From assembly GCA_035461245.1 (NCBI GenBank), contig DATHVP010000025.1, positions 79,714 to 143,713 on the forward strand: a stretch of DNA of 64,000 nt. The letters run 5' to 3'. The translations under genes and the position numbers were made by a program. The notes beneath the pieces are model-generated. The model was not told the origin of the DNA and did not search any database. It saw nothing but the letters and a program-made list of their open reading frames with translations. This document shows, piece after piece, positions 18,422 to 50,773 of this stretch (within the stretch, counting starts at the first letter, position 1; each line of letters begins with the position of its first letter). The stretch is from Longimicrobiales bacterium. GTDB taxonomy: Bacteria > Gemmatimonadota > Gemmatimonadetes > Longimicrobiales > RSA9.

Positions 18422-18497
18422 GTACGGTCCTCCCTCGGTCGAGTGCCTGCCTCGTCAGGCAAGATATCGGCCGGCGGAGGCGCCTACCACCACCTCG

Positions 18498-18776: not shown

Positions 18777-19101
18777 GACTGTCTCCGAACTCTCAGGATC
18801 TGATTGCGACGGGGCTCCCGCCGCACCACCTGTAGCGAAACGTGCGTGCCGAGGCTTCATCGGCGCTTAAACGCTTCTCGTACAACCGATTTTCCAGTTC
18901 CGAGCCCGCCCCGGACTGCGCACCGGCCGTCCGGCGCCGGGCACCGGCGTCCCGGATCCGGACGCCGGACCGCCCCTTCCCCCTCGTGCCGCGAATCGGC
19001 GGATCCGGGCCCGTCCCCGACCGGACCATGGACTCCCCTTGACAGTCTATGGGTCAGCCCTGCAGCTTTCCCAGAGAACGTCTAGGGCAACGGAGGGGAC
19101 A

Positions 19102-19437: not shown

Positions 19438-19473
19438 TGGCCGGGGCCCCTTCGCTCATCACGAGGACGTGCC

Positions 19474-31901: not shown

Positions 31902-32570
31902 ATGAAGTTGCGCAGGTGCTGGACGGCCGCGATGGCGGCCCTGATGGCGGGCTCGGCCGGCGCGGCGATGCCAGCGGCGGGACAGGAGACGGGCATCAAG
32001 GGCGGCGTCTCCATCTCCCGGCTGCAGACGGACGGGGCCGAATACTGGGACGATAATCTGGTCACCTCGACGTTCGGCGGCCACGCCCGGTTCCGCCTCG
32101 GCCCGCTGGTGCTGCAACCCGAGCTGCTGGTGGTGACGAAGGGCGCATCGGCGTCGCAGCCGTTCCCCGCCGACCTGGAAGATGACCAGATCCGGATGGA
32201 GTACATCGAGGTACCACTGATGATCGTGGTGCCGGTGTCCATCGGGATGGTGGAGCCGTACGTGATGGGTGGCCCGGCCCTCATGCTGGAGAGCCGCTGC
32301 CGTTCGTACGTCCGGCAGGATGGTCTGCGTACGAACCTGCCGTGCGACCCGCCGCAGGGCCAGCTGTTTCGCAGGACCGCGTTCGACTACGGCGTCGCGG
32401 CCGCCGGCGGCGTCGCGTATCCCGTCTTCGGGGGCAGGGCCTTCGTCGAGGGGCGGCACACATGGGGACTGCGCAACATACACAAGGGGCCCGGCGACGC
32501 TGACGTGCGCAACCGGACCCTCTCGTTCCTCGTCGGCTTTGCCATGGGCTGGGACCCGGCTCCGCAGTAG
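31902..32570 (+). CDS. Small outer-membrane beta-barrel protein (porin-family/OmpW-PorT-like), paralogue of 52781-53413
   Basis: Signal peptide ending AAGQ. GIKGGVSISRL..., then LVLQPELLVVTKG and EYIEVPLMIVVPV strand motifs shared with the 52781 gene. Confidence 0.7.
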   Translation: MKLRRCWTAAMAALMAGSAGAAMPAAGQETGIKGGVSISRLQTDGAEYWDDNLVTSTFGGHARFRLGPLVLQPELLVVTKGASASQPFPADLEDDQIRMEYIEVPLMIVVPVSIGMVEPYVMGGPALMLESRCRSYVRQDGLRTNLPCDPPQGQLFRRTAFDYGVAAAGGVAYPVFGGRAFVEGRHTWGLRNIHKGPGDADVRNRTLSFLVGFAMGWDPAPQ

Positions 32571-32594: not shown

Positions 32595-33875
32595 TCACAG
32601 CGCGGCGTCCTCCGGGGCGCCGTCGTCATTTGTACCACCGCCGCCACCGCCACCGTTGTTCCGCGGCACTGCAGTCCTGCCGGTGCTGGTGCTGTTGCCG
32701 GTGCTGCCCGACGTGGACGATGCGCCGGCGGATGACCCGCTGGCCGGCTGGCGGGTCTGCGCGCCGCGCCCGCTGGACGTGGCGCTGCTGCCCGGTGTGT
32801 AGCCCTGGCCGCGGATCATCTGGCCGCCCCGTCGCTCTTCCCGCTCCGGCTCCACGATGACGACGATGGGGCCCTGACCGTAACGCCAGCCGTAGGCGTC
32901 ATAGCCCCAGGGCGAATAGCCGAACCGGCCGTAGCTCGAGCCATAGCCGTACATCGCCCGTCGCTCACACTCCAGGCGGCTCAGGCGACGGAACGTGTAG
33001 GGGTCCCGGCAGTCGTCGTACATGCCGGTGCGCAGCCCTGCCGGCGCTGCCTGCCCCTGGCTGCGCGGCCCCTCCTGCACCGCGAACCGCTGCGGGTGCG
33101 ATACGGCGATCATCACGTCCAGCACCGACGCCGGCACGCCCTGTCGCTCCAGCGCCAGCAGCGCCCGGGCATCCAGGCCGAAGCCGTGCTGCCGAAGTGC
33201 GATGAGTGCCTCCACCACCGGTGCGGCCACCATTGTCGTCGCCTCGACGACGTCATCCGTACCCATGGGCGCTGCCGCGTTCAGCCGGGCCGCTTCCGTG
33301 GCGAGGCTCCGGTCGGCTGGCAGCATGCCGGCCACTGCGTCCGGCACCTGCTCCGGCCGGACGGCGCGATAACGCACCGAGCGGGTCAGGTGCTGGCCGG
33401 CAATCTCCACGGCCTGCACGTCCACCCACTCGTTCTCGGCGATGAGGGACAGGACACCGGAGGACTTGCGGCGCACGCCGTCGCAATCGAGTTCGGTGCG
33501 GACGTACACGCGGCGTCCGTCCCGGGACCACGTTGCCGTCTCCGTGCCGGTGCAGCCGCCGTCCTCCACTGCCCGGGCCGTGCCGTCGGCTGTGAACACG
33601 GACTCGTCCACCACGGCGCCGTCCTCCACCGAGAGCATGCGGACGGTGGCCGGATTTTCTCCCGGCGCCACACAGACCAGGGCGTTCAGCGGCGCGTCGT
33701 CGCCCAGCGGCCGCCAGCAGCCGAGCCACGGCGTCCAGCCGCTGTTCTCCTGCGAGGCGGCCGTGGCCTCAGCGACGGCGGCGCTGCCGGGCGCCGTGCC
33801 CTCCGCCGTGCCTGCCGTGGGCAGAGCCAGCAGCGCCAGCAGCGCTGCGGCCGGGGTCATGCTGCGAGCCTTCAT
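32595..33875 (-). CDS. Secreted hypothetical protein with Cys-containing N-terminal domain and Gly/Ser-rich tail
   Basis: AAGGAGG SD before ATG 33875. Signal peptide MKARSMTPAAALLALLALPTAGTA. Conserved-looking Cys pairs. C-terminal low-complexity segment SSATSSGRG...STSGSTGNSTSTG...GGGGGGG. No family recognised. Confidence 0.6.
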   Translation of the reverse strand: MKARSMTPAAALLALLALPTAGTAEGTAPGSAAVAEATAASQENSGWTPWLGCWRPLGDDAPLNALVCVAPGENPATVRMLSVEDGAVVDESVFTADGTARAVEDGGCTGTETATWSRDGRRVYVRTELDCDGVRRKSSGVLSLIAENEWVDVQAVEIAGQHLTRSVRYRAVRPEQVPDAVAGMLPADRSLATEAARLNAAAPMGTDDVVEATTMVAAPVVEALIALRQHGFGLDARALLALERQGVPASVLDVMIAVSHPQRFAVQEGPRSQGQAAPAGLRTGMYDDCRDPYTFRRLSRLECERRAMYGYGSSYGRFGYSPWGYDAYGWRYGQGPIVVIVEPEREERRGGQMIRGQGYTPGSSATSSGRGAQTRQPASGSSAGASSTSGSTGNSTSTGRTAVPRNNGGGGGGGTNDDGAPEDAAL

Positions 33876-33893: not shown

Positions 33894-34628
33894 TCACCAG
33901 CGCCAGGAGACGCCAATGAACGCCTGCGTACCGCTGAGGTCCATGCTCTCAAACCGGCTGTAGCTGCCCTGCACCGGCGCCGAGCCGCGAGTGTGCCGCG
34001 CCTCCACGTTCAACCCGATGCGCGGCGTGACCCACCAGTCGCCGCCCGCCACTGCGTGGACGGTGAAATTGTGGGCCGTGGATTCGTACTCCTCAAGGAA
34101 GATATCATAGGTCTGCCTGTCAACGAACTCCCCCTCCTGCCGGAGGCGGTACCACGTCATGCCCACGCCGCCGCCGATGTACGGCGTGACCCGGGCGGGC
34201 AGCCAGGCCAGGTTGCTCATGGTGCGGCCCCGATCCAGTGGCAGGTAGCGGGCAGTGGCCGTCACCGGCGCAATCCGCAGCCTTGTCCTCTGCTCGATGG
34301 GCAGCCCGTCATCGCCCTCGAAGTCCCGGTACTCGGACCTGCTCGAGGACTCGGCCCACCCCACGCCCAGGGCCAGGTCGAAGTTCGTGCCCAGCAGCAG
34401 GGCCAGTTCCGCGCCCAGCATAGGCGCCCGGAAATCGCTCCGCTCGAGGGTCAACTCCGTGGTGATCTCGTCGAACAGGTCGCTGCGCGCCTGCGGCAGT
34501 GACGGCCCGGCGCGCACCGTCAGCTGCGCCTCCGGCCGTGAGAAGAGGAACCCGTCCTGCGCGTGCAGCAGCGCGGGCGCGCCGGCCAGCGCAACGGCGG
34601 CCGCCACACATGTCCTGAATCTGCCCAT
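33894..34628 (-). CDS. Outer-membrane beta-barrel protein (about 244 aa), family unassigned
   Basis: Signal peptide MGRFRTCVAAAVALAGAPALLHAQ, alternating amphipathic strands, and a C-terminal aromatic end (FIGVSWRW). The next gene starts 18 bp downstream. Confidence 0.65.
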   Translation of the reverse strand: MGRFRTCVAAAVALAGAPALLHAQDGFLFSRPEAQLTVRAGPSLPQARSDLFDEITTELTLERSDFRAPMLGAELALLLGTNFDLALGVGWAESSSRSEYRDFEGDDGLPIEQRTRLRIAPVTATARYLPLDRGRTMSNLAWLPARVTPYIGGGVGMTWYRLRQEGEFVDRQTYDIFLEEYESTAHNFTVHAVAGGDWWVTPRIGLNVEARHTRGSAPVQGSYSRFESMDLSGTQAFIGVSWRW

Positions 34629-34669
34629 GAGGCCTCCCGGGCATCTGGATGTCTGTGAGAAGGTACGAC

Positions 34670-34684
34670 GCAAGGCGTGCACCG
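34670..34684 (-). promoter_or_regulatory. Weak sigma-54-like element (CGGTGCACGCCTTGC on minus strand)
   Basis: GG-N10-GC spacing and a TTGC -12 box are present, but the -24 box is GGTGCA rather than GGCACG. About 40 nt upstream of ATG 34628. Confidence 0.15.
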
Positions 34685-34805
34685 GCACCGTCGCCGACTA
34701 CTCCCGCCTGAGTACTACGGCGCCCGGGCCGGCAGGTTCCGTCCGGGGCCGGCGGGCACCGCGTACACCTTCGCTGACCGCGCTTCGGCGACGTCGGGCC
34801 CGCCC

Positions 34806-36284
34806 CTAGGGCACCCGGACGCGGTAGAAAACCTCGAAGGATGCGCCGTGGCCGGCCATGCTGCCGCTCATCTGGATCCTCCAGTGCGTGACGTTGGCGT
34901 CATAGCCCGCCGGCGCGCCGCCGCCGCCGGACACGGGGACATACGTCCACGTCACACCGCCGTCGCTGGAGAACTGCGGTGTGCCCAGCGCCAGCCCCGA
35001 CGCCGACGCGCCCTGCACCAGCAGGAACGGAGCGCCGCCAAATGCGTCCAGTTCCAGGGCCACGCCGTCCAGCGCCGTCCGGACAAGTACGCCCTCCGCC
35101 GGCGCGTGCGCCGGGTTGGAAACGGCCACCGAGTAGAGCCGCACGTCGCCCGGCACGGCCGCCGCCACGTCCACGGTGTGCAGGATGTTCAGTTGCGGCG
35201 ACGGCTGGAGTGTGAACGGGACGGACGCCGCGTTGTTCGCCGGGTCCGAGTCGGTGCCCGTCCAGGTGGCAATGACGGCGGACGCGGACAGGCCGGCCGG
35301 TTCCGGGACAGCCGTGCCGCGCACCGTGATCTGCAGCTGCCGCTGCGCCTCCGCCGCCAGCAGCGGCAGCGTCCAGCGGTCGGGGCGGCCATCGCCGTTC
35401 GTGTCGGCGAACGCGGTGCCCGCAGGCGCGCTGTGAGTGACGTACGTCACCTGCGACGGCAGCGCGACGTCCACCCCGACACCGGTGAAATCATCGAAGT
35501 AGATGTTCCTCAGTGTGACGGTCAGCGTCATGTCCTGGCCGTGGCCCACGTGGGCGGTGCCGGCAACCACTTCAACGCCCATGTCCGGCGGGAAGAGCGA
35601 GCCGCCCGTCGGGCCGCCCATGTTGTCCTCCACGTGGCCCGGCAGGTTGAAGCCGCGGGATGACGAGATATGGAACCCCACGTTTTGCGGCCCCGCCATG
35701 CCCAGGTCGCTCCAGGCAAGACGCGCTTCCATCTCCAAACCGGTGACAGAGCCGCCTGTAACGTTGGAGTAGAGCGTGGCGCAGCCCGTGGCTGAACCGG
35801 GCATCGTAAACCCATCGCCACGGATGGGATCGCCGCCCGCGGCGACCTGCACATACGTGCACAGCGAGGCCGTCGTGCGCCGGTTGCTACCCTGCCAGTC
35901 CACGGCAAAGACACGCTCCCCGGTGGACATGCGACCGTCGTTATTGTCGTCCAGGTAGAACAGCCACGTCGTCGTGTTGCTGGAGCTGGCATAGCGCTCA
36001 ACGTAGAAGTACAGGTACGCCGCGTCCCACGTGTAGGAGAAGAATTTCAGGTCCCGGCCGGCGCTCTGGCCCGGGTCGTTCTCGCACGCCTGACCGGCCT
36101 GGCAATCCGTGCTGAACTGGCCGGGGTTGGTCAGGATGGACGGCGCTGCCGTCCAGTCGGACATGTGGCCATCCACCGTGATGGTCCGATCAATCCGCGC
36201 CTGCGCCGCTGCCGGCGCCCTGATGGCGACGAGCGCAAGCAGCGCCATCGCCGCAGCCACGACTGCCTGTCGGAGCCACGTCAT
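34806..36284 (-). CDS. Secreted protein: CBM9/DOMON-like N-terminal domain plus DUF11-type Ig-fold repeats
   Basis: Signal peptide. ITVDGHMSDWTAAPS...FSYTWDAAYLYFYVE resembles sugar-binding CBM9-like modules. DUF11 signature DVALPSQVTYVTHS. ATG 36284 overlaps the stop of the 1457-aa gene (ATGA). Confidence 0.7.
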   Translation of the reverse strand: MTWLRQAVVAAAMALLALVAIRAPAAAQARIDRTITVDGHMSDWTAAPSILTNPGQFSTDCQAGQACENDPGQSAGRDLKFFSYTWDAAYLYFYVERYASSSNTTTWLFYLDDNNDGRMSTGERVFAVDWQGSNRRTTASLCTYVQVAAGGDPIRGDGFTMPGSATGCATLYSNVTGGSVTGLEMEARLAWSDLGMAGPQNVGFHISSSRGFNLPGHVEDNMGGPTGGSLFPPDMGVEVVAGTAHVGHGQDMTLTVTLRNIYFDDFTGVGVDVALPSQVTYVTHSAPAGTAFADTNGDGRPDRWTLPLLAAEAQRQLQITVRGTAVPEPAGLSASAVIATWTGTDSDPANNAASVPFTLQPSPQLNILHTVDVAAAVPGDVRLYSVAVSNPAHAPAEGVLVRTALDGVALELDAFGGAPFLLVQGASASGLALGTPQFSSDGGVTWTYVPVSGGGGAPAGYDANVTHWRIQMSGSMAGHGASFEVFYRVRVP

Positions 36285-39200
36285 CGGCCACCTCCCATCC
36301 GCGCACGCCAGTTCTCAGCCATGTTCCGACCCGTCTGCTCCGTCACGCTCATGCCCAGGCTCAGGTACCAGCCGCCCCGGCCATCCGGTGCGAAGTCCCG
36401 GTCACTCAGGTCGCCGAAGCGGTACCCCGTCTCCAGCTCCAGCCCCGGCAGCAGCCGGAAGCCCAGCGCCGGCGACAGGTCCCACTGCGCCAGTTCCGAC
36501 CGTGTCTCCCCCAGCACGCGGAACCCGAGGCGGGCGTCCAGCCGGTCCATCAGCGGCTGGCGCACCCGCGCTCCCACGTAGTGGTTATGGCTGCGCAGCA
36601 CCCAGCCGTTGGCGGCCTCGCCGGTCAGCTCCGAGAAGCGGATGGCGTAGCGGCCGCCCAGCTCAGTGCCGTACTCCGTCACCCAGATGCCTTCGGCGGC
36701 GGCGATGATGCGCGCGTCCACACCGTTCAGTACAGCGCCCCCGGCGCGCATGGGGTTCTCGTCCCGACGGCGCTCCAGCTTGAACAGGCCGTTCCAGTCG
36801 CTCCGGTTTGCCGGCCGGTACGCCAGCGCTGCCATGCTGTGGCTGGCCCGCACGGCGGCCACGCCCGTGTCCAGCAGCCGCCGGTCCTCGCGGGCATCCT
36901 GCCGCAGCAGCAGCGCCCACGACCGGTCCAGCACGGCCTCCGCCGTGCCCACCACACGGTAGCCCCGTCCGGTACTCTCACGGTCGTGCAACTCCGCCCG
37001 CAGGCCCAGCATCACGTCCCGCTGCTCCGGGGCCCACGCCACGCCACCGGCCACCGTCCACCGGTCTTCCTCCAGCTCGGGGAACGGCAGCGTCCGCATC
37101 GGATCGGTCTCCGGCAGCCGGCTGATGCCTGCCCGCCGCTCCACCATCGCGTCCACGCCCCAGCCGCCGCCCAGGCTCAGCTTCTGGCCGAGACCCGCCA
37201 GCAGCGCACGCTGGACACCGACAGCGCCGCCGGACTGCTCCATCTGCGTCCACGCCCGCGTGCCCCGGCCGAACTCCGTCCGGACGCCGGCACTGGTGAC
37301 GCCCCACGTCGCCGAGTCCGTGCTGAACACATGGTGTCCCGCCTCCAGCCGCACGCCGTCCAGCACCCGGTACGCTGCGCCGGCGCCGATGCTCCGGGGC
37401 CGCGCCATCGTGCTGCCGCTCAGCGGTTCGCTGCCCTCCACCCAGATCGCCGTCCGTGCCGTCTCCCACGCGGCCCGGACCAGCGCTGACCGGAGCGACG
37501 ACGTCACACCCGACCGCTCACTGCTCTCCTCCTGCACCCCGCCCTCCAGCGTCATCCGGCTGGCGCCCTGGCGCCGCTCCGCGCCCAGCAGCGTCCGCGA
37601 CCGGGCCGCGCCCCTCTGGCTGAACCACTGCTGGCTGTGCATCGCCTCCACGCGCCACGCGCTGTCCAGCCGGACGGCGCCCGCCAGCCGCACGTCCTCC
37701 GTGCCCGCCACCAGCCGCGGGTTCGCCGGGTTGTGGAAGCCACCGCCCGTACGGTTCCACTCAAGCCGCGCCGAGAGCCGGTCCGACGCGCCACCCAGCC
37801 AGCCGGCCGCCTGTATGGCCAGGCCTGCCGAGTCGCCAGCAGCACCGCGGGCCACTTCCACCCGCGCCCCTACCGGGCCCGCCGCCAGCCGCGCGTCCGC
37901 CGACACCAGCGAATGGCCGCCCAGCGTGCTGCGATCCTCGATGAACGCCGCGCCGGCAACCGCCGAATCCGCGGGCACGCCCAGCGCGCCGACCACATCC
38001 ACCTGCGCCCGCACGCCACCCACGAACGACTCCTCGCCGAACAGCTGCTCCGCCAGTACCACCAGCATGAGCGGGTTGCCAGCGGCGTCCGCCGACGGCA
38101 GCGGCCGGCGCAGCAGGATGGCACCGCCGGCCGCGTCCATGTCATAGTCCACGAAGCGCTCCAGCTCGTGCCGCGCCAGCACCAGCGACGCGTTCAGCCG
38201 GTCCCGCGTCTCGATGGCGACCCTGTCCGTGCCCAGGCGGACGGCGCCGCCGACATGGTACGGGCCGGAACTGCCGTTGCCGCGCATCTGGTGCTGCACC
38301 AGCTGCTGGCCCACCAGGCTGCCAAAGCCCAGCAGCTCCACGGCGCCGGCATGGAGCTGGCCGCTCACGCCGGGCAACGCCCGGTTGTAGGAACCAGGCG
38401 TGCCAGGCTCGCCGAAGCCGCGGGTATCCATGTCGCCCAGGAGCAGCCAGCTCCGGTCCCGCTCGATGCGGAGCGACACCGGCGTCGTCAGGCTGCGCAG
38501 CATGATGCGCTCGCTGTTGTCGCCAAGCGTGAGGTAGCGGCTCTCGTCCAGCGCGTCGTACGCGCCGCCGAAGCCGTCCTCGGGCCGGCGGTTCCGGGAG
38601 TCGTAGCTCACCGTCACGGCCGTTCGCTCGTCGAGGGCGCCCCGGGCCAGCAGCGCGCCGTAATTCCGGGAGGCGGCGCCGACACTAACCTCACCGTCGG
38701 CCAGCAGGATCAGCCCGCGCACGTCCGGCAGCACGGCCAGCGGGAAGGTTCCCCGGACCTGGCCCGCCTGGAGCGTGAGGCGCGCAGCGCCCGTGGAGTC
38801 CGCGCGCACCGGCACCAGGGCGACACCATTGGCGTTCACTGGCACCTGGAGCCCGTAGCTGCCGCGGTTCGCATCCTCCGCCAGCACATCCAGCCCATCG
38901 GCGGTCACTGTCACATGCGGCCCCTGCGCCACCGCCACGCCCCATTCGTCCAGCACGCGAACGGCGATGAGCGACGTCGCCCCTGCCCTGACCTCGGCCG
39001 AATCCGCCCGCTCGAAGCGGTGCGGCGAGCCGGACACGTGCACGGAGATGGCGTGACGCTGCTCACCGGCGGCGCCCCGGACCACCGCCTCGATGGTGTT
39101 CGGACCCACCCGCAGCGGCACACCGATGAAGTCCTCGACGCCGTCCGGCCGCAGCACCGACTCCCGGATGAGGGCGCCGCCCACGTAGAGCGCTACCGGC

Positions 39201-40654
39201 CGCGACGCCTCGCCTTCCACGCGCACGTACACCCGATCGTTCGGCAGCATGGCACCGTTCGCCGGCGCCGCCACGCGGGGGCGCGGCACGAACAGGCCGC
39301 CGGCCACGGCGATGCCCTCAACCGCCGCCTCGTCCGCCACGACACTAGTCGTGTCCCGGCGCAGCCCGAAGCCCACCGACGGTGTCGTCCAGCCGTCCAC
39401 GCGGATGCTGGCCACATCGCCGGGCAGGTATCCCGCCGGCACGCTCAGCGGGTCCACCCGCAGCGTATACCGGCCCGGGCGCAGGTCCGGCAGGGAGAAC
39501 CGGCCCTCGGCATCGGCGCGGACCATTTCGCCGCTGGACACCCACACGATGGCGTGGCCCAGCCCCCTCTCGCCGGGCTGCTGCCGGCCGTCGCCGCTGT
39601 CGTCCAGCCACACGCGGCCCAGGACCGCCCGCGTGGCCATGCGGCCGTCGCGCACCCGCACCGCCGTCCACGACGTGTCCGTCCGCGTACCGTCCGCCAG
39701 TTCCACCCAGGTCGCGTGCCGCAGCACGCTGCCCCATTCGGCGCCCGCCGTGGCAGCGTACCGGACCACCACGCTGTCGCCCGGCGCCAGGACCGGCAGC
39801 GCGAAGCGTGGCTCCCGCCCCGCCTCCATCATGAGTGCGCCATGCTCCGTGCCCGGCTGGGGATCCAGCCCCGTCGGGAAGCTGGCCCGCAATGTCGCGC
39901 CGGCCACCGCGCCAGCGCTCGTATTCCGTATGACAACCGTGAATCCCACCGGCCCGGCGACGCCTACCTCCGCCACCGAAGCCCGGCTCTCCAGCGCCAC
40001 TGACGCCTCGGGCGCTGGCGGCTGCGGGTCCGTCACGGCCACGGCCACCGAGGTCGCCACGGCTTCGTCCATGCCGTCGCTGCGTGCCGTTGCACGCGTG
40101 GCGATGGCGCCGCTGGCCACGGACTGGACCTCCACGCTCATCTCGATGACCCGCGTCTCGCCAAGGGCGAGTTCCGCGATCCGCCACCTGGGCGAATTGG
40201 CGGCCGGCCGCGCTGACATGGCCCCGCTGCTGACGCCGGTCAGGGGGGTGTCTGATCCAATGAAGTTCAGTTCCTGCGGCAGTTCATGAGTTACCACGAC
40301 ATTCCGCAGCAGCATCTCAGCCGAGCGGTTGCCCACCGTGATGCGGTACGTCAGCGTGTCGCCCGCACGCAGCGGCCCGCTCACCACTGCTTCCAGTTCC
40401 AGGGCGAGGTCCCGGGGAAGGACCCGCATCTGGACCGGCATGGTTGCCCGGGCCGTGTCCATCCACTCCCGGCCCGTACTGTCAAGGAACCGGATCACTG
40501 CCCGGTTCTCCACCTGGACGACGCCGCCCGACTGGGCCGCCACCGGCGACACTGCCGCCAGCAGCACGACGAGCGGGCCCGCGGCGCGGCCGACGGCACG
40601 CAGAAACGTCCTGCCTGCCGAAAGCCGTTCCGTGAACCCGCTCGTGCGCATCAC
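36281..40654 (-). CDS. Giant (1457 aa) outer-membrane protein: DUF11 repeats + SdrD-B/Cna-B-like + Ig-like domains fused to a C-terminal barrel-like region of about 800 aa
   Basis: Signal peptide to ~aa 41. DUF11 signature VVTHELPQELNFIGS (aa ~119-134). SdrD-B-like GRVWLDDSGDGRQQPGERGLGHAIVWV...DAEGRFSLPDLRPGRYTLRV (aa ~345-400). Ig-like modules run to ~aa 645. From ~aa 650 there are long runs of alternating strand-like segments ending LELETGYRFGDLSDRDFAPDGRGGWYLSLGMSV. Confidence 0.75.
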   Translation of the reverse strand: MMRTSGFTERLSAGRTFLRAVGRAAGPLVVLLAAVSPVAAQSGGVVQVENRAVIRFLDSTGREWMDTARATMPVQMRVLPRDLALELEAVVSGPLRAGDTLTYRITVGNRSAEMLLRNVVVTHELPQELNFIGSDTPLTGVSSGAMSARPAANSPRWRIAELALGETRVIEMSVEVQSVASGAIATRATARSDGMDEAVATSVAVAVTDPQPPAPEASVALESRASVAEVGVAGPVGFTVVIRNTSAGAVAGATLRASFPTGLDPQPGTEHGALMMEAGREPRFALPVLAPGDSVVVRYAATAGAEWGSVLRHATWVELADGTRTDTSWTAVRVRDGRMATRAVLGRVWLDDSGDGRQQPGERGLGHAIVWVSSGEMVRADAEGRFSLPDLRPGRYTLRVDPLSVPAGYLPGDVASIRVDGWTTPSVGFGLRRDTTSVVADEAAVEGIAVAGGLFVPRPRVAAPANGAMLPNDRVYVRVEGEASRPVALYVGGALIRESVLRPDGVEDFIGVPLRVGPNTIEAVVRGAAGEQRHAISVHVSGSPHRFERADSAEVRAGATSLIAVRVLDEWGVAVAQGPHVTVTADGLDVLAEDANRGSYGLQVPVNANGVALVPVRADSTGAARLTLQAGQVRGTFPLAVLPDVRGLILLADGEVSVGAASRNYGALLARGALDERTAVTVSYDSRNRRPEDGFGGAYDALDESRYLTLGDNSERIMLRSLTTPVSLRIERDRSWLLLGDMDTRGFGEPGTPGSYNRALPGVSGQLHAGAVELLGFGSLVGQQLVQHQMRGNGSSGPYHVGGAVRLGTDRVAIETRDRLNASLVLARHELERFVDYDMDAAGGAILLRRPLPSADAAGNPLMLVVLAEQLFGEESFVGGVRAQVDVVGALGVPADSAVAGAAFIEDRSTLGGHSLVSADARLAAGPVGARVEVARGAAGDSAGLAIQAAGWLGGASDRLSARLEWNRTGGGFHNPANPRLVAGTEDVRLAGAVRLDSAWRVEAMHSQQWFSQRGAARSRTLLGAERRQGASRMTLEGGVQEESSERSGVTSSLRSALVRAAWETARTAIWVEGSEPLSGSTMARPRSIGAGAAYRVLDGVRLEAGHHVFSTDSATWGVTSAGVRTEFGRGTRAWTQMEQSGGAVGVQRALLAGLGQKLSLGGGWGVDAMVERRAGISRLPETDPMRTLPFPELEEDRWTVAGGVAWAPEQRDVMLGLRAELHDRESTGRGYRVVGTAEAVLDRSWALLLRQDAREDRRLLDTGVAAVRASHSMAALAYRPANRSDWNGLFKLERRRDENPMRAGGAVLNGVDARIIAAAEGIWVTEYGTELGGRYAIRFSELTGEAANGWVLRSHNHYVGARVRQPLMDRLDARLGFRVLGETRSELAQWDLSPALGFRLLPGLELETGYRFGDLSDRDFAPDGRGGWYLSLGMSVTEQTGRNMAENWRARMGGGR

Positions 40655-40681
40655 CCTGTGGTCCTTGTCCGCTCGCGCGCT

Positions 40682-41839
40682 CTAGCGGACGCGTGCGATG
40701 ATCTCGATGGTCAGCGAAGCACCCGCCGCCAGCGTCGCTACCGTTGCCGTCACCGTCTGCCCACCCGTGGCCGAATCCCAGCCCGTAGCGGTGTGGCTCA
40801 CGTACTCCAGTTCCGCCGGCAGGTCATCCGTCACCACCACATCCACTGCTGCGCTGCCGCCCGTGTTCTCCACCGTGATGACGTAGCGGACCTCCTCGCC
40901 GGGCAGCACGTTGCCGGCGATTACCGAACCGTCAGGACGCGTTACGTCCTTCGCGATGCTGATGGCCGGCCGCGCCAGTGTGGCCGTATGGGTCGCTGCG
41001 TCCGTCACCGAGGCGTCGCTGGCGTTGACGGCCGTCAGCGTGATGCTGCCGGTACCGCTTGCCACGTTCGCGACGCTGTAGGTCACCGTGTAGTCCACGG
41101 ATGCGCCCGCGGCGAGGATGACGCTGGCGGGCATGCCGCCGTCGTCGGTTATGCTCACCTCGCCTGACGCCGACTGGGTCAGGTTGAAGGTGTAGGAGGC
41201 GCCACCGGTGTTCTCGACGGTGAAGGTCACCTGGTACGTGCCCGGCACCACGTCGCGGGTGGCGGGGTCCGCCGTTACCGACACGCCCGCCGTCGGCACC
41301 TCGATGGTCACCGCCGCAGGCGTGTGGCTGACGTCGCCGTCGCGACCGGACGTGGCCGTGAACGTGAGCGCCTGGTCATCGCCGCCGGTTCCGCCGTTCA
41401 CCGAGTAGTTGACGGTGACGGTCAGGTCATCGCCCATGTCCACGTTCATGGCAGCCAGCGCTGCGTTCAGTTCGGCGAGATCCGCGTACGTTGCGGCGCC
41501 GACGGTGAAGCCGGTGACCGTGAGACCGGCGCTCGTCGTCAGCCCCACCACGAACTGGTCTGTCCCGTTGCCGGCATTCGTGATGGTGTAGGCCGCGGTG
41601 CCGGTGGCGCCGGGCAGTGTCGTCAGCCCGGACGGCGGCGCTACCGTGACGCCGGCCTGGAAGCCGACGGTCACGGTGGCGCTGGCCGTCTGCTCAGCGT
41701 ACGTGTTGCCGTTGGCGTCGGTGAACGTCACCCGCGCCGTGTTGGTGATGACCGTGCCTTCCGGCGTCGGTGTCTGGGCCGCCAGCGGCGCTGCCACCAT
41801 CAGCAGCACGGGCAGCCAGAGCAGGATCTGTTTCCTCAT
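40682..41839 (-). CDS. Secreted Thr/Ala/Gly-rich multi-Ig-fold protein with C-terminal DUF11 domain (candidate fibre/major subunit)
   Basis: GGAGAG SD before ATG 41839. Signal peptide MRKQILLWLPVLLMVAAPLAAQ. Repeated beta-rich segments (TFTVENTGG, YVITVENTGG). DUF11 signature VVVTDDLPAELEYVS. Confidence 0.75.
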   Translation of the reverse strand: MRKQILLWLPVLLMVAAPLAAQTPTPEGTVITNTARVTFTDANGNTYAEQTASATVTVGFQAGVTVAPPSGLTTLPGATGTAAYTITNAGNGTDQFVVGLTTSAGLTVTGFTVGAATYADLAELNAALAAMNVDMGDDLTVTVNYSVNGGTGGDDQALTFTATSGRDGDVSHTPAAVTIEVPTAGVSVTADPATRDVVPGTYQVTFTVENTGGASYTFNLTQSASGEVSITDDGGMPASVILAAGASVDYTVTYSVANVASGTGSITLTAVNASDASVTDAATHTATLARPAISIAKDVTRPDGSVIAGNVLPGEEVRYVITVENTGGSAAVDVVVTDDLPAELEYVSHTATGWDSATGGQTVTATVATLAAGASLTIEIIARVR

Positions 41840-41911
41840 TGTTCTCTCCACAGGGCAAGTGGTCCGAATGCACGAAAGGGGACGGCACCCGCCGCCCCGC
41901 TACTTCACCTG

Positions 41912-42439
41912 CTACTGCCGTACTGCACCGGGCGGCGCCGGCCGCGCGCCCACCAGGACGTCATACCGCGCCGTGACGCGACTGCCCGGCGCAACGCCGT
42001 CGGTGATGACCCAGCGGACATGCGTGTACGTCGCCGGGTCGGCCGGCAGCGCCACTGTGCGGCCGCCATCCGTTACCTCCACCATCGGCTGCGGTGAGTA
42101 CGACACGCCGCCATCCACCGAGTACTCGATCCGCGCGGTCACATCCGACTGCGCGCTGCCCCCGATGAAGACCAGCCCCCCGGGCAGCGGGTTGTCGATG
42201 GCCACGTTCCGGACCTCCGCGTCCTGCGTATTCGTGAAGTCCAGGTGGAAGCGGAGCGTGTCGCCCGGCAGCGTGGCCGCCGCGGAAGACCGCGCGCTGT
42301 CCTTCGCCAGCGTCAAATTCTCCTGCCGCAGCACCAGCGCTTCATCCCCGCCGGACGCCTGCGCCCGCGCCGCCCTGGCCGGGCCCAGCACCGCCATCGC
42401 CGCTGCCAGCACCGTCACCAGCTTCATGGTCCTTTTCAT
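41912..42439 (-). CDS. Small secreted single-DUF11-domain protein (175 aa)
   Basis: GGGAGG before ATG 42439. Signal peptide MKRTMKLVTVLAAAMAVLGPARA. DUF11 signature VRNVAIDNPLPGGLVFIGGS. First gene of the cluster. Confidence 0.65.
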   Translation of the reverse strand: MKRTMKLVTVLAAAMAVLGPARAARAQASGGDEALVLRQENLTLAKDSARSSAAATLPGDTLRFHLDFTNTQDAEVRNVAIDNPLPGGLVFIGGSAQSDVTARIEYSVDGGVSYSPQPMVEVTDGGRTVALPADPATYTHVRWVITDGVAPGSRVTARYDVLVGARPAPPGAVRQ

Positions 42440-42586: not shown

Positions 42587-42683
42587 AAGGAAGTGTAACG
42601 ATCGGAAAATGTTGCGGGACAAGGGATATTTTGTACTCGCAATCAAATGTGGGGGACCGGAAAAATGTGGAATTCCGTCGCGC

Positions 42684-42698
42684 TGGCACTGCTCGTGC
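42684..42698 (+). promoter_or_regulatory. Sigma-54-like -24/-12 element TGGCAC-N5-GTGC
   Basis: TGGCAC at 42684-42689, 5-nt spacer, GTGC at 42695-42698 (one mismatch to TTGC). The predicted +1 near 42710 would leave only ~6 nt before ATG 42716. If the gene starts at 42647 or 42665 instead, the site lies inside coding sequence. Confidence 0.3.
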
Positions 42699-42715
42699 CT
42701 CTGTCCGACCGCCGT

Positions 42716-44875
42716 ATGAAGACACTGACCATGGCGATGCTCGTCGCATTGCAGCAGCCGGTGGCTGCCCAGCAGCCCCGCGACAGCATTTACGAGACTG
42801 CCGCGCTGGCGGCGATTGTGGACCGGGCCGCTGAGCTGAACGCTCGCGTACCCGCGGGCCTGAATTCCTACCGTGCCCGGGTAGAGACGGAACTGTCGTT
42901 CGTGCGGGCGGAGCCGGACGGGCGGGAGACGGTGCTGCAACTGGAGCAGGTGGCCAGCGATCTGTTCTGGCGGCAGGACGGCGGCGTGCTCCAGCGGCTC
43001 ATCGGCTACCGGTCGCAGACGCTGGGCGCGTCGTTCTCGGGGCTGACCTTCTTCGACGTGCCGTGGCTGGTGCCCATCCTGTATGGGGAACGCATCGACC
43101 TGGTCCGCACGGGGGGGCCCGCGTACGAGGGCGGCATGCTGCTGCGACGGCGGGCGCTACACCCGTTCGCGCCCACGCGGGAGGAAGTGTACCGCTACGC
43201 CGGCGGCGACACCGTGGACATCATCGTGCTGCCGGACCGGCGCATCCCCATCATCCGGATCCATGTCGAACCCCGGTCTCAGCCGCGGCTGCCGACGCTG
43301 CTGTTCCATGGCGACATAGACATTGACGTCACGCGCATGCACATCGTGCGCATGCAGGGGCGACTGGTCCCGTCGGGTCGCGGCCGGACGGCGCTGGACC
43401 TCGTCGCGCAGGGCGTGCTGTTCGTGAGCTTCGAGACAGCCGAGTACGACGAAGGCTACTGGCTGCCGCGAACGCAGCGCTTCGAGTCCCAGGCCATCTC
43501 GCGGCTGGGCGAGGAGCGGATCCTGTTCCGGGCCATCTCGCGGTTCGTGGACATCCATACCAATGACCCGGAGGCTGCGCGGCTGGCGGCGGACCCGGTG
43601 GATCATCCTTTCGGGCTCATGGTTGGCGGCGATGACCTGGGCGCCCTGGGCCGGTTCGGCGAATGGCGCACGGGCATGGGCGACCTGAACGCGGAAGTGG
43701 ACGCCCGGGACTTCGACCAGTGGGCGCCGCCGGGCATCCGGCGCACGGGCGAGCCCCGCGTGTATCTGGGCGCCCGCCGCTTCTCGCAGATCTTCCGTAT
43801 AAACACGGCCGAGGGCGCGTTCACGGGTGCCGGCATCGGCTTCGACGCCGGCGATGCGTGGCCCGGCTTCGGCGCCCGCGTCCACGGCGGCTGGGCCTGG
43901 GCCGAGGAGACCTGGCGCGGCGGTGCCGAACTGTCCCAGCGCATCGGCAACTGGGAGGGCATTGCCCGCGGCGAGCGCCTCCTGGCCCATACCAACGACT
44001 TCACCTGGGCCATGGACCCCGAGCCGTCGGTGCCGCCCATGCTGTCAGGCGACCTGTACGACTACCTGGACCGCCGCGTGGGTGGGCTGGTGGTCCGGAC
44101 CGCCGCGGCCGACCGCGTCGGCTTCCGCTTCGAGGCCGCCCGGGCCCAGGACAGGAACGTGGGGCGCAACGTAATGGACTTCCCCGCGCTGGATGACGAC
44201 GGCGCCTGGATCCCGCCGGAGACTCACACGGGCGACCTGCGCCTCAACCGTCCCGTGGCGGAAGGCGAGTACTGGCTGGGCCGCGCGGAGTTGCGCCTGA
44301 ACCCGTCCGCCGGCGGCATCTCGCTGGATCCGGGGCTGGCCGTGCGCCTGGCCTGGGAGGGCGCCAGCGGTGACCTGGACTGGCACCGGCTGGAGGCCGG
44401 CTTCGCCCAGCGTCGCATGCTGGGCCGCTGGACGCTGGGCCTCCGTGGCGATGCCGGCATCATGCTCACGCCCGGCGACGCCGAGCCCGTGCCCCAGGCC
44501 CTGTTCGAACTGGGGACGTCCGCGGACCTGCCGGGCTTCGCGTACAAGGAGTTCGTCGGAGACCGTGCCGCCCTGGGCCGCGGCACCATCATGTACACGC
44601 TGCCCATCTTCAACGCGCCCATCCGCCTCGGCTCGTTCTGGCTGCCGGCACCCGCGCCATCGCCGTCGGTCGGGCTCCAGGTCGGCTGGACGGACGCGGC
44701 CGCGGAGACGCAGCAGCTCATGGACCGTTTCGGCTGGGGCACCTCCGACGGCGCCCGCGCCGCCGTGGACCTGCGCCTCCGCTTCTTCGGCGGCAGCGTC
44801 AACATCGGCGCCGCCCGGCCGCTGGACAGCGATGGCCGGTGGCGCTTCGTCTGGGGACTCGTAGGTGGACTCTGA
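42716..44875 (+). CDS. Omp85-superfamily-like outer-membrane protein (paralogue of 14671-16953); start uncertain (42647, 42665 or 42716)
   Basis: MKTLTMAMLVALQQPVAAQQP aligns with the paralogue's signal peptide end (PAAAQRP). Shared blocks: L.SY.A, YRY..GDT, WLPR. C-terminal ELGTSADLPGFAYKEFVGDRAAL resembles the LGG..LRGY surface-antigen motif. Confidence 0.65.
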   Translation: MKTLTMAMLVALQQPVAAQQPRDSIYETAALAAIVDRAAELNARVPAGLNSYRARVETELSFVRAEPDGRETVLQLEQVASDLFWRQDGGVLQRLIGYRSQTLGASFSGLTFFDVPWLVPILYGERIDLVRTGGPAYEGGMLLRRRALHPFAPTREEVYRYAGGDTVDIIVLPDRRIPIIRIHVEPRSQPRLPTLLFHGDIDIDVTRMHIVRMQGRLVPSGRGRTALDLVAQGVLFVSFETAEYDEGYWLPRTQRFESQAISRLGEERILFRAISRFVDIHTNDPEAARLAADPVDHPFGLMVGGDDLGALGRFGEWRTGMGDLNAEVDARDFDQWAPPGIRRTGEPRVYLGARRFSQIFRINTAEGAFTGAGIGFDAGDAWPGFGARVHGGWAWAEETWRGGAELSQRIGNWEGIARGERLLAHTNDFTWAMDPEPSVPPMLSGDLYDYLDRRVGGLVVRTAAADRVGFRFEAARAQDRNVGRNVMDFPALDDDGAWIPPETHTGDLRLNRPVAEGEYWLGRAELRLNPSAGGISLDPGLAVRLAWEGASGDLDWHRLEAGFAQRRMLGRWTLGLRGDAGIMLTPGDAEPVPQALFELGTSADLPGFAYKEFVGDRAALGRGTIMYTLPIFNAPIRLGSFWLPAPAPSPSVGLQVGWTDAAAETQQLMDRFGWGTSDGARAAVDLRLRFFGGSVNIGAARPLDSDGRWRFVWGLVGGL

Positions 44876-45151: not shown

Positions 45152-47956
45152 CTATCGCGCCTGCAGCCACACATCCTCGAGCACCCGCACCATCTGCGAG
45201 TACTGGCTGCCACCTATCTCCAGCGCAACGCGGTACGTGCCCGGCTGCGCCAGCGGACCCTGCTGCGTCTGCCCGCCAGGTCCCTGCCGCGAGTTCCCCC
45301 GCAGGTTCCACTGCACACGATGCAGGCCGGCCGTACCCGGGCCCGACAACTCACGGAATACCTCTCCCGACACCAGGTCCGTGATAACGATGCGTACATC
45401 GCCACCTGCCGGCTGGCGCAGGTGGTAGCTGATGGCGGTGCCCGCGGGCGCTGACTGGCCAGTCCAGTTCTTCGCACCCGTCACGGACCGGGAACTACGC
45501 CTGTCGGTCTTCCACAGCACCGCCTCCCGGGGCGCGAACAGGTGAGCCGCCGCCGCCATCACGTCCGGGGTCAGCTGCTGCAGTGGCGAGATGTCGTCCA
45601 TCACGGCCACGCCCCGGCCATGGGTGGCCAGCACCAGGTCGTTCTCCCGGGGGTGAACCAGTACGTCATCAACGCGCACCGTAGCCAGGTTGTTCATGAA
45701 CCGCTTCCAGCTGCGGCCCTCGTCCACACTGATGAAGAAGCCGAATTCCGTGCCGGCATAGAGCAGGCCCGGATTCTTCGGGTCCTGCCGCACAGTGTTG
45801 ACGTTGCCGAACTGCGGCAGGTCCGATGCGATGCTCTGCCACGTCCGGCCGTAGTCGCGCGTCACATAGACGTACGGCCGGTAGTCGGCGCTCCGGCGGC
45901 CGTCCACGGACGCGTATGCCGTGGCCGGGTCGTGATGCGAGGCCTCCACCCGGGAGACGTAGTACTCCTTCGTGCCGCCGGGAACGTTCTGGCCGACTTC
46001 GGTCCACGTGGCGCCGCCGTCCCTGCTCACCTGGATGTTGCCGTCATCAGTGCCCACCCAGAGGATGCCGGGAACGATGGGCGACTCGGCGACGCTCACG
46101 ATGGTGCCGTAGGCGCTGATACCGTCATTGCGGGACAGGATGCATGGCACACCCCGCGTGTTCCTGTTGCACGTCGGCGTGTTCAGCCGCACACCCATGA
46201 TGCTGCGGCCCATGCGATCGATCTGCTTCGTCAGGTCTGGGCTCATGACCCATGTCTCGCCGCGATCGTACGACTTGAACAGCCGGTTGCCACCGGCATA
46301 CACCACGCTCGGGTTGTGAGGCGACAGCATGAATGGCGTGTTCCAGTTCCATCGGATCTGCGTACCCGCCGGCGGCGCGGGGACGATGTTCGTAGTCGGG
46401 TTCTGGTTCGTCGGCGCGCGGGGGCGGATGCTGCCGCCGCTGCCGTCCCGCAGGCTCACCCGATTGATGTTCCCGTTCTGTGACTCCCAGTAGATGATGT
46501 TCGGGTCCGTCGGGTCAATGGCCGTGTAGAAGCCGTCACCGCCGCCCACCCGGAACCAGTCCTGTGCGAGGATCGGCCCCGTCCGCATGCCGCTGGGGCC
46601 GCACCAGCTGCCATTGTCCTGCAGCCCGGTGCACACGTTGTAGGGTCGCTGCATGTCCACAGAGGCATGATACGGCTGGCCCACGGACCAGGTGCGCAGG
46701 GACTCCCAGGTCGCCGCCTGGTCATGGCTGACATCCACGGAGCCGTCATTGCCGAGCATGACGTGGTTGCCATCCTTCGGGTTGATCCAGATGGCGTGGT
46801 GGTCCACGTGGCCGAAGCCGCTCAGCGTCTGCCAGGTCCTGCCACCGTCCACGGACTTGTACGCCTGCACGCCACCCGTGTAGACAATATCCGGGTTCGT
46901 CGGGTCTACCCGGAGAATGCTGAAGTACATGGGACGCACATTGTTGTTCGACATGAACGTCCACGTGCGACCCTTGTCGCTGGAGCGCCACACCCCGGAG
47001 AACTGCGGATCCGGCGCCTGCTGGCCACCCTGCTGCGATGAGTTCTGCGCCGCCGCAACCCGTGGCTCGCGGTCCGGTGCCACCTCGATCTGTGCGTATA
47101 TCACGTCCGGGTTCGACCGGGCAAAATCCATGGCAATCCGTCCCATTGTGCCATTGGGCAGGCCGTTGCCCTGGACCCGCTGCCAGGTCTCGCCGCCGTC
47201 GTCCGAACGGAAGATGCCGCTGCCCGGACCGCCCGAGGCAAACCCCCATGCCGTCCGCTGGCGCTGGTACAACGCCGCGAACAACGTGTTCGGGTTCGAC
47301 GGGTCGATGATCAGCTCCGTCGCGCCCGCATGCTCGTTCTCGTACAGCACACGGCGCCAGTTGCGGCCACCATCCGTGCTCTTGTAGACACCGCGCTCCG
47401 GATTCCCGCCGAACAGTGCGCCCGCCGCCGCCACCCAGACCACGTCCGGATCCGTCGGGTGCACGACGATGCGCGCGATGGTGAGCGTCTCCCGCAGGCC
47501 CACGTGACTGAATGTCCGGCCGCCGTCAGATGACCGGTACACTCCGTCGCCATACGTCGAACTCTGACGGTTGTTCGCCTCGCCTGTGCCCACATACACC
47601 ACGTCCGGGTTCGACCGGGAGACCGCCACGGCTCCCACGGACGACGTGCCGTAGGCGCCGAACACGTCCTCGAACGTGATCCCGTTGTTCTCCGTGCGGA
47701 ACAGGCCGCCTCCGGCGAACGCCACGTAGAACCTGCGCGGGTCCGACTCCACCACCGCAATGTCATTGACCCGGCCACCCTGGCCGATGGGACCGATCTC
47801 CCGCCACCGGAACTGTGTCAGCAGCGGGTCGTCCGCCTGGTTCAGTACCGGCCGCCGCGCCTGCGCCTCCACCGGTACCGGCCCCATACCCGCTGCCAGC
47901 ACCACCATCAGCGTGGCCAGCCGCAGTACGCCCCGCCAGCGCCATCCGCTCGTCAT
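45152..47956 (-). CDS. BNR/Asp-box repeat protein, sortilin-VPS10/glycosyl-hydrolase-like double beta-propeller
   Basis: About ten Asp-box motifs (SSDGGRTF, STDGGRNW, SDDGGETW, SSDKGRTW, SVDGGRTW, SYDRGETW, SRDGGATW, TRDYGRTW, SVDEGRSW). Signal peptide present. AGGAGAG SD before ATG 47956. Confidence 0.85.
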   Translation of the reverse strand: MTSGWRWRGVLRLATLMVVLAAGMGPVPVEAQARRPVLNQADDPLLTQFRWREIGPIGQGGRVNDIAVVESDPRRFYVAFAGGGLFRTENNGITFEDVFGAYGTSSVGAVAVSRSNPDVVYVGTGEANNRQSSTYGDGVYRSSDGGRTFSHVGLRETLTIARIVVHPTDPDVVWVAAAGALFGGNPERGVYKSTDGGRNWRRVLYENEHAGATELIIDPSNPNTLFAALYQRQRTAWGFASGGPGSGIFRSDDGGETWQRVQGNGLPNGTMGRIAMDFARSNPDVIYAQIEVAPDREPRVAAAQNSSQQGGQQAPDPQFSGVWRSSDKGRTWTFMSNNNVRPMYFSILRVDPTNPDIVYTGGVQAYKSVDGGRTWQTLSGFGHVDHHAIWINPKDGNHVMLGNDGSVDVSHDQAATWESLRTWSVGQPYHASVDMQRPYNVCTGLQDNGSWCGPSGMRTGPILAQDWFRVGGGDGFYTAIDPTDPNIIYWESQNGNINRVSLRDGSGGSIRPRAPTNQNPTTNIVPAPPAGTQIRWNWNTPFMLSPHNPSVVYAGGNRLFKSYDRGETWVMSPDLTKQIDRMGRSIMGVRLNTPTCNRNTRGVPCILSRNDGISAYGTIVSVAESPIVPGILWVGTDDGNIQVSRDGGATWTEVGQNVPGGTKEYYVSRVEASHHDPATAYASVDGRRSADYRPYVYVTRDYGRTWQSIASDLPQFGNVNTVRQDPKNPGLLYAGTEFGFFISVDEGRSWKRFMNNLATVRVDDVLVHPRENDLVLATHGRGVAVMDDISPLQQLTPDVMAAAAHLFAPREAVLWKTDRRSSRSVTGAKNWTGQSAPAGTAISYHLRQPAGGDVRIVITDLVSGEVFRELSGPGTAGLHRVQWNLRGNSRQGPGGQTQQGPLAQPGTYRVALEIGGSQYSQMVRVLEDVWLQAR

Positions 47957-50611: not shown

Positions 50612-50773
50612 TGCGAACTCCGGTCTGGTAGACGAGCGGCGGCACTACGCGAACTGCCGCCTGCATCGACGGGTGTGCGCTGCCGACTGGGGGCCGGCAG
50701 TGTTAGCCATGACCGGGCAGGATGCAAGAGCCCGGCCGATTGCCGACGGTCCGCCGCCGCGGCATTATCCGCC

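Follow-up and report, generated by a model that had tools for sequence, protein, structure and literature searches.

How an outer-membrane bacterium might assemble a set of secreted immunoglobulin (Ig)-like proteins around one giant membrane protein is the question raised by a four-gene cluster in Longimicrobiales bacterium (assembly GCA_035461245.1, contig DATHVP010000025.1). The cluster occupies positions 34806-42439 of the 64,000-nucleotide stretch analyzed here, referred to as the window. As initially annotated, it consists of four genes on the same strand, here the minus strand: A (41912-42439, 175 aa), B (40682-41839, 385 aa, or 389 aa if translation starts at the upstream GTG at 41851 instead of the ATG), C (36281-40654, 1457 aa) and D (34806-36284, 492 aa). 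The gaps of 72 bp and 27 bp and the ATGA overlap joining C and D were confirmed in the open reading frame (ORF) coordinates, and an independent public gene call for the same metagenomic contig lists products of 175, 385, 1456 and 492 aa. The signal peptides predicted for all four proteins were borne out by reading the sequence, since each N-terminus runs from a basic region through a hydrophobic core to an A-x-A|Q site and contains no lipobox Cys. The answer we favor, on balance, is that A, B and D end in domains that lack their last β-hairpin, that B and C begin with the missing hairpin, and that the four proteins would join through these complementary ends.

All four proteins had been assigned the DUF11 repeat, and the four quoted repeat motifs were all present. 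B, C and D scored 55.6, 56.7 and 63.9 bits against PF01345, above the cut-off of 24.6 bits, whereas A (19.4 bits) remained below this threshold and passed that of the related profile TIGR01451 (32.1 bits, cut-off 24). PF01345 was renamed CLIPPER in 2025, and its crystal structure is a CnaA-like Ig fold containing an intramolecular Lys-Asn isopeptide catalyzed by Asp (PMC12617251). A complete CLIPPER fold carries the Lys (strand 1), the Asp and the Asn (late strand) within one domain, an arrangement absent from the terminal domains of A, B and D. Searches of Pfam, NCBIfam and Protein Data Bank (PDB) sequences returned matches only to DUF11/CLIPPER, SdrD_B and CarboxypepD_reg. The AlphaFold2 (AF2) model of B, comprising a hairpin followed by three Ig-like domains with a predicted local distance difference test (pLDDT) score of 93.8, agreed with its earlier description as a stack of Ig-like modules, and Foldseek searches with B yielded only generic tandem-Ig matches (integrin legs, HYDIN, antigen I/II and PrgB).

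Analysis of the chain ends revealed that the C-terminal domains of three of the four proteins stop at the same place. In B, which consists of an N-terminal hairpin, two Ig-like domains and a truncated CLIPPER domain, the terminal DUF11 match covers positions 12-84 of the 114 positions of the hidden Markov model (HMM) and runs directly into the stop codon, leaving a seven-strand domain (40685-40975). A is a signal peptide followed by a single CLIPPER-like domain that is one hairpin short, and D ends in a truncated module homologous to A (34809-35207), preceded by a head of unknown fold and one complete CLIPPER domain; the final residues are ...IIARVR in A, ...YRVRVP in B and ...GAVRQ in D. The same terminal strand was found in all 120 B homologues, 43 A orthologues and 25 D-type proteins, and in the corresponding cluster of Telluria beijingensis the three small proteins end at DUF11 HMM positions 84, 86 and 83. 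Beyond the point at which B and the B-like subunit B2, described below, terminate (...GTVTFQVRVG, then the stop codon), homologous complete domains in C orthologues run on into a hairpin of the form [VL]-x-N-x-A, for example ...EVLTNRAYATAENEF... and ...QRVVNTAYLQGQG....

A hairpin of this kind, detached from any preceding domain, stands at the mature N-termini of B (QTPTPEGTVITNTARVTFTDANGNTYAEQTASATVTVGF, 41660-41776) and C (QSGGVVQVENRAVIRFLDSTGREWMDTARATMPVQMRV, 40421-40534). It directly follows the signal peptide in both proteins, reading GTVITNTARVTFTDANGNTY...ASATVTV in B and VVQVENRAVIRFLDSTGREW...ATMPVQ in C, and B- and C-type proteins from Gemmatimonadota, Telluria, Qipengyuania and Geobacter share such an orphan hairpin (..I-x-N-x-A..) at this position. 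No N-terminal hairpin is present in A or in the D-type proteins, including D of this window. Among the 120 B homologues, Q22, T25, E27, D41, A42, N43 and N45 of the hairpin are invariant and N33 is conserved in at least 90%, placing the hairpin among the most strongly conserved stretches of B, and it was modeled by AF2 with a pLDDT above 95.

These complementary ends suggest a simple mode of assembly. The C-terminal CLIPPER domains of A, B and D lacking the last hairpin would act as acceptors and the N-terminal hairpins of B and C as donors, each hairpin inserting in trans into the acceptor of another chain, and the chain ends would then permit only one linear order, (A or D) <- B(n) <- C. Because C has a donor only, and ends in what appears to be an outer-membrane barrel, it would be the proximal anchor. 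The acceptor-only proteins A and D would lie at the distal end, A as a distal cap and D as a tip protein with a variable head, and B, which like B2 has both a donor and an acceptor, would be the shaft subunit. Such a polymer would have the same topology as a long tandem-repeat CLIPPER adhesin while being built from separate parts with exchangeable heads. We regard this donor/acceptor architecture as slightly more probable than not.

The distribution of the isopeptide residues points to a further property of the joints. In the truncated domain of B, K297 in strand 1 and D338 in the VTDxLP motif are invariant in the 120 sequences, no partner Asn lies inside the domain, and the only conserved candidate Asn for the triad is N33 of the N-terminal hairpin. 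Where a complete internal domain of C or D lacks the Lys, the sequence shows that the Asn is missing too. In an alignment of 25 D-type C-termini, most acceptors keep the Lys and Asp and have no hairpin of their own, so that completion would be possible only in trans, by another chain. With Lys and Asp in the acceptor and Asn in the donor hairpin, the joints made by B and by most D-type proteins are probably locked by an intermolecular Lys-Asn isopeptide, formed spontaneously in a natural SpyTag/SpyCatcher-like reaction. We hold this lock with less confidence than the donor/acceptor architecture, and three observations count against its being general: the Lys is absent from strand 1 in nearly all of the 43 A orthologues, some C donors have Ser in place of the Asn, and D of this window has His at the usual Lys position together with a degenerate VDSLP motif. 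Covalent locking is therefore not universal, and some joints would be non-covalent; A, for example, may be a non-covalent cap or a reversible periplasmic mask of the B and C donors.

Chimeric sequences in which a hairpin was appended to an acceptor were consistent with the completion of a split domain. The B acceptor alone scored 60.6 bits against DUF11 over HMM positions 11-84, increasing to 69.2 bits over positions 11-114 with the B hairpin (+8.6 bits) and to 65.2 bits over positions 11-94 with the C hairpin (+4.6 bits), in contrast to 57.1-61.3 bits (changes of -3.5 to +0.7, with variable coverage) for control chimeras carrying four shuffled hairpins or a reversed one. Against CLIPPER_2 the B acceptor rose from 27.0 to 30.5 with its hairpin, the controls scoring 21.9-24.8, and a Telluria acceptor rose from 23.5 to 28.5. 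Addition of the B hairpin also increased the DUF11 score of A from 20.2 to 27.4 bits, extending its HMM coverage from 9-55 to 9-114, and that of the D module from 13.7 to 23.8 bits. Circularly permuted B gave one contiguous choice_anch_T match over the junction (from 31.2 to 41.9 bits, +10.7; HMM positions 117-228 extended to 65-227), and the B chimera could be aligned over the junction to BcpA, an isopeptide pilin from Bacillus cereus (3KPT, E 0.0085). The permuted protein likewise matched TIGR04226 contiguously over the junction, coverage increasing from 4-82 to 4-122 of 123 positions; this gain was set aside as evidence because the reversed-hairpin control gained nearly as much.

Part of this evidence speaks against strand exchange and for a simpler explanation, in which A, B and D act independently as secreted or periplasmic Ig-like proteins, C being a large porin or adhesin that contains Ig-like domains. 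Co-regulation of the genes would then reflect only a shared envelope role, the hairpin would belong to the domain that follows it, and the seven-strand C-terminal domains would be complete. The chimera gains were modest, at 4-10 bits, and the behavior of the reversed TIGR04226 control points the same way. Some DUF11 domains are naturally seven-stranded (PMC12617251), and a truncated domain could therefore be stable alone. AF2 modeled B confidently as a monomer. Mean-field direct coupling analysis (DCA) of 144 B sequences (effective number, Neff, ~94) recovered intradomain pairs and the register of the hairpin, and yielded no convincing couplings between hairpin and acceptor. However, independent proteins leave unexplained why three protein types end at exactly the same strand in four phyla, why homologous C domains run on into an N-x-A hairpin, why an orphan hairpin ranks with the best-conserved parts of B, and why a domain without an Asn partner retains an invariant Lys/Asp pair. 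We consider the absence of exchange unlikely, although it is the leading competitor of the donor/acceptor architecture.

Comparison with related genomes indicated that A, B and C form a conserved unit. A locus search with a six-sequence alignment led to 82 fetched loci, and every contig reaching upstream of C (~45 of the 82 loci) showed an A-type gene, then a B-type gene, then C. Small-medium-large arrangements were also found in Telluria beijingensis (169/437/1610/561 aa), Qipengyuania sediminis (327/158/375/1686 aa) and a Geobacter genome (624/344/163/392/2121 aa), extending the A-B-C adjacency from the ~45 Gemmatimonadota loci to beta- and alphaproteobacterial and Desulfuromonadota genomes. 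Of the four-gene order initially proposed as a unit, the A-B-C adjacency thus held and the position of the fourth gene did not, as a D-type gene usually lies upstream of A and not downstream of C.

D-type proteins range from 400 to 2369 aa and combine a common C-terminal module with very different N-terminal parts. Large examples were encoded at 13933-21042 in locus L063, 7558-13407 in L050 and 10130-12172 on the minus strand in L021, sometimes kilobases from the cluster or on the opposite strand. The presence of the D acceptor module on large proteins with unrelated N-terminal parts, some of them encoded far away, suggests that it may act as a general attachment signal. The head of D in this window had only two homologues among 5.8 billion proteins, one of which is the head joined to an acceptor module with Lys and Asp. 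It had no Pfam match even at E<=10 and no PDB match by sequence or profile, leaving the earlier proposal of a CBM9/DOMON-like sugar-binding head unconfirmed, a guess from sequence pattern. BLASTP of the whole of D against the protein of the fourth Telluria gene, which carries DUF8293, detected no significant similarity.

At least seven loci encode B2, an additional B-like subunit of ~305 aa between B and C that has a donor hairpin and a truncated acceptor (for example L026 3543-4463, L064 6244-7170 and L066 6219-7133); none was found in this window. Such extra subunits resemble ordered adaptors and raise the possibility of a complex of fixed stoichiometry, in which one B (and B2) extends the stalk of C, a giant autotransporter-like adhesin, and one A or D completes it. 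This arrangement would use the same donor/acceptor logic, and the B donor may suit the acceptors of A and D as well as it suits that of B. Polymerization of B, rather than a 1:1:1 complex, would better explain why B bears both a donor and an acceptor, why the B donor completes the profile of the B acceptor best (+8.6 bits), and why the lock residues are kept family-wide at both ends of B, a pattern that fits homopolymerization. We judge the fixed complex improbable, a little more so than the absence of exchange.

The anchor of the proposed chain would be C, which had been singled out earlier as the only membrane-embedded candidate. Its donor hairpin is followed by a stalk (38735-40420) containing two complete DUF11-like domains without the Lys/Asn pair, an SdrD_B/CnaB-like domain and further Ig-like domains before the barrel. 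Pfam matches were confined to DUF11 and SdrD_B/CarboxypepD_reg-like profiles in the first ~430 residues, the last 1000 residues matching nothing in Pfam or among PDB sequences. The AF2 model of residues 600-1457, built with 40 homologues (mean pLDDT 81.9, predicted template modeling score 0.76), showed in order one Ig-like domain, a conserved unstructured segment of ~30 residues (692-725; 38480-38581), a beta-rich module and ~30 long antiparallel strands with short turns. On this model the last ~730 residues of C (~726-1437 in the model) appear to form a very large β-barrel of the outer-membrane type, with roughly 30-36 strands, in agreement with the earlier suggestion. The barrel module (36344-38479) thus begins with a conserved beta-rich part, a possible plug, followed by the ~30 consecutive long strands. 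The unstructured segment retains several invariant residues (YDSR...DPL.E..Y..GD.S) despite a pLDDT below 50, and is a candidate lumen-crossing or plug-linking segment.

An exhaustive HMMER scan defined the barrel family as 1448 cluster representatives at E<=1e-3, of which 1061 remained at E<=1e-10. The best-scoring members were mostly 1600-2400 aa, the barrel was always C-terminal, and members were named only "DUF11 domain-containing" or "SdrD B-like domain-containing" protein, the cluster names giving no taxonomic or functional annotation. Foldseek of the predicted barrel against the PDB retrieved only large outer-membrane barrels (BtuB, SlpA, LptD, SprA and FimD), with template modeling (TM) scores of 0.17-0.28; the top match, BtuB, had a TM-score of 0.19, FimD 0.22 and SlpA the best, 0.27-0.28. 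On the modeled structure, the resemblance to solved barrels is generic and does not amount to family membership.

The appearance of FimD, BtuB, LptD and SprA among these matches, together with faint CarboxypepD_reg matches such as occur in SusC N-termini, might be taken as signs of a divergent known machine, whether chaperone-usher, type V autotransporter, two-partner secretion, TonB-dependent/SusC-like or a type IX secretion system (T9SS) cargo set. However, searches of Pfam and NCBIfam found no match at E<=0.1 to usher, PapD chaperone, autotransporter barrel, POTRA/ShlB, plug/TonB_dep_Rec, T9SS C-terminal domain, PEP-CTERM or LPXTG profiles, no chaperone-like gene is conserved nearby, and the TM-scores did not exceed the range given above. 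The lack of a recognizable chaperone, usher, sortase, two-partner-secretion, T9SS or PEP-CTERM signal, noted in the initial annotation, was thus upheld, no search having assigned C to an usher, TonB-dependent or autotransporter family, and we give the idea of a divergent known machine almost no credence.

The SlpA scores, the best of the barrel matches, would also suit an envelope tether or scaffold, in which C, like Deinococcus SlpA or OmpA-type tethers, would bind peptidoglycan through a periplasmic N-terminal region, with A, B and D as periplasmic partners. In three C homologues, that of Geobacter and two others, the SdrD_B stalk is separated from the pre-barrel Ig domains by an OmpA-like (peptidoglycan-binding) domain (residues 810-912 in L080 6224-12589, 739-833 in P0022 and 733-833 in P0031). 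An OmpA-like domain before the barrel places at least the pre-barrel part of C in the periplasm, makes exposure of the stalk at the surface no more than putative, and tells against a surface fibre. In contrast, Pfam searches detected neither an SLH nor an OmpA domain in C of this window, CLIPPER and SdrD_B domains typically occur in extracellular stalks (PMC12617251), and D-type variable heads of up to 2369 aa would be expected of adhesins rather than of periplasmic scaffolds. A tether of this kind is, in our estimation, quite improbable.

If the four proteins do form a surface fibre, assembly would proceed without a chaperone, usher, sortase or protease, and none is encoded. No chaperone, usher, sortase or peptidase gene was conserved with the cluster among the flanking ORFs of the 82 loci or in the gene list of the window within 10 kb on either side. 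The giant C barrel would then be the sole candidate route across the outer membrane and possibly an export pore, a role that, like the covalent lock, we propose with less assurance than the donor/acceptor architecture. The site of assembly could be either side of the membrane. On one route, the fibre would grow at its base in the periplasm and be threaded tip-first through the C barrel until ended by the N-terminus of C itself; on the other, single subunits would be exported and growth would occur on the exposed donor. The need for A, B and D to cross the outer membrane, for which the C barrel is only a candidate route, is a further point against a surface fibre. Taken at its broadest, the proposal is of a widespread, hitherto unrecognized diderm pilus class in which a naturally split CLIPPER polymer is covalently tied to the N-terminus of a protein whose outer-membrane barrel of at least 30 strands also serves as the export pore, and is capped by plug-in, interchangeable tips; we put this forward tentatively, as somewhat more likely to be wrong in part than right in full. 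The initial view of the cluster as a self-contained outer-membrane display or assembly module outside the known pilus and autotransporter classes is supported by these results, and none of the three findings named in advance as refuting it (a known family for C, no synteny in related genomes, no membrane barrel in the model) was obtained. The term surface fibre is still an inference.

Among known systems, the proposed chain would resemble a chaperone-usher pilus most in its polarity. In type 1 and P pili (FimH-FimA-FimI with FimC/FimD), an incomplete Ig-like subunit is completed by the N-terminal extension of the next subunit, as we propose for the cluster from sequence. The tip protein there also consists of a head and an acceptor with no donor, the last subunit is a donor-only anchor, and an outer-membrane barrel is involved. 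Unlike these pili, the cluster has no PapD-type chaperone (PF00345/PF02753) in the four proteins, their neighbors or within 10 kb on either side, and no Pfam or NCBIfam match to an usher (PF00577). Its predicted donor is a two-strand CLIPPER hairpin instead of a single strand, and its acceptor is the C-terminal domain of a subunit with several domains. A single polypeptide provides both the terminator and the barrel, the latter with ~30-36 predicted strands as opposed to 24, and a covalent lock is predicted.

In its presumed chemistry the cluster would be closest to BsaA fibres, archaeal threads and SpyCatcher. Donor-strand "exchange and lock" has been proposed or shown for BsaA, a TasA family protein of Clostridium perfringens, and for archaeal threads (Saci_0406), in which the bond joins Asn57 to the N-terminal amine of subunit n+2. 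Both are chaperone-free fibres built by head-to-tail strand complementation with spontaneous intermolecular isopeptides, and both have cap-like paralogues encoded beside the major subunit; they differ from the cluster in having TasA-like or thread pilin folds instead of a CLIPPER/CnaA-like one, in occurring in a monoderm bacterium and in archaea, and in lacking an outer-membrane barrel. The SpyTag/SpyCatcher pair is an engineered split CnaB2 domain. It parallels the chemistry proposed here, as a domain lacking its last strand or strands rejoins the missing peptide and is locked by a spontaneous isopeptide, but it is man-made, has a CnaB rather than a CnaA-like fold, is not polymerizing by design and has no membrane anchor.

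The Gram-positive sortase pili (BcpA, RrgB and SpaA) and the CLIPPER stalk domain (PDB 9IFR) belong to the same domain superfamily and share a Lys-Asn isopeptide catalyzed by Asp or Glu. Their isopeptide is intramolecular, however, and the subunits are joined by sortase via LPXTG, whereas the triad of the cluster is split over two chain ends in a host with an outer membrane; neither an LPXTG-type signal at the C-termini of A, B and D nor a sortase gene in the window neighborhood or related loci was found. Type V pili of Bacteroidia (FimA/Mfa1) are likewise chaperone-free strand-exchange fibres of diderms, but the cluster has no lipoprotein signal, Arg-protease processing site or FimA-family match. 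In autotransporters, as in the proposed C, a single chain carries both the N-terminal surface part and the C-terminal barrel, but C has no match to the type Va profile PF03797, its modeled barrel is about three times larger than the 12-strand barrel of that type, and no long helix precedes it in the model. Two-partner secretion/Omp85 systems (POTRA domains with a 16-strand barrel; TPS domain), TonB-dependent/SusC-like systems (Plug, PF07715; 22-strand TonB_dep_Rec barrel) and T9SS or PEP-CTERM cargo (TIGR04183, TIGR02595) had no profile match in the cluster.

Full-text literature searches recovered the CLIPPER paper and the analogous systems, and in none of the results were this gene cluster, the barrel family or a split CLIPPER domain described, leaving the cluster a candidate new class of surface fibre. 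Were the proposal correct, it would add an assembly principle for Gram-negative surface fibres beside chaperone-usher, type IV, curli and type V, and would represent the first covalent, sortase-independent pilus polymerization in diderms. It would also provide a function for more than 1400 giant barrel proteins of Gemmatimonadota, Proteobacteria, Desulfuromonadota and others now labeled "DUF11" or "SdrD B-like", single out a C-terminal module as the mark of fibre tips among very diverse proteins, and offer natural orthogonal self-ligating tag/catcher modules for protein engineering. Cultured carriers include Telluria beijingensis (CP132480, 2.889-2.898 Mb), Massilia, with Massilia oculi as an example, and Qipengyuania sediminis.

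Clustering of the flanking ORFs identified a histidine kinase, response regulators and a sigma-54-type regulator as the sole recurrent partners, in 21-23 loci, which suggests regulated expression of the cluster. These regulatory genes, the kinase being of the Hpt/GAF type, lie upstream of the cluster in the related loci (for example L002 3656-5206 and L040 1850-3244). In this window a sigma-54 activator without a receiver domain is encoded at 30780-31799 on the plus strand, ~3 kb from D. No sigma-70 or sigma-54 promoter and no terminator could be assigned at the cluster, and no -24/-12 promoter was found upstream of A.

Several further genes lie immediately around the cluster. Downstream of D lie a small outer-membrane protein (OMP)-like protein ending in FIGVSWRW (33894-34688, minus strand), a 426-aa secreted protein with a Gly/Ser/Thr-rich tail (32595-33875, minus strand) and an OMP_b-brl family protein (31902-32570, plus strand). 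On the other side, a divergent gene (42647-44875, plus strand) encodes a secreted protein of 736/742 aa that has no Pfam match and whose C-terminal part is beta-rich and OMP-like. The small OMPs and the 426-aa and 736-aa proteins were excluded as members of the system because they are absent beside the cluster in other loci. Further upstream, a Sortilin/Vps10-BNR repeat protein (~45152-47956, minus strand) and a multihaem c-type cytochrome (~49200-50630, minus strand) are encoded with no evident link to the cluster.

The window has a G+C content of ~70%, and the genomes most closely related to it are those of Longimicrobiales and Gemmatimonadales. Over gene C (36001-40000) the GC skew is markedly negative relative to the remainder of the window, at -0.12 to -0.18, a bias that probably stems from the amino acids and codons used in this long gene on the minus strand.

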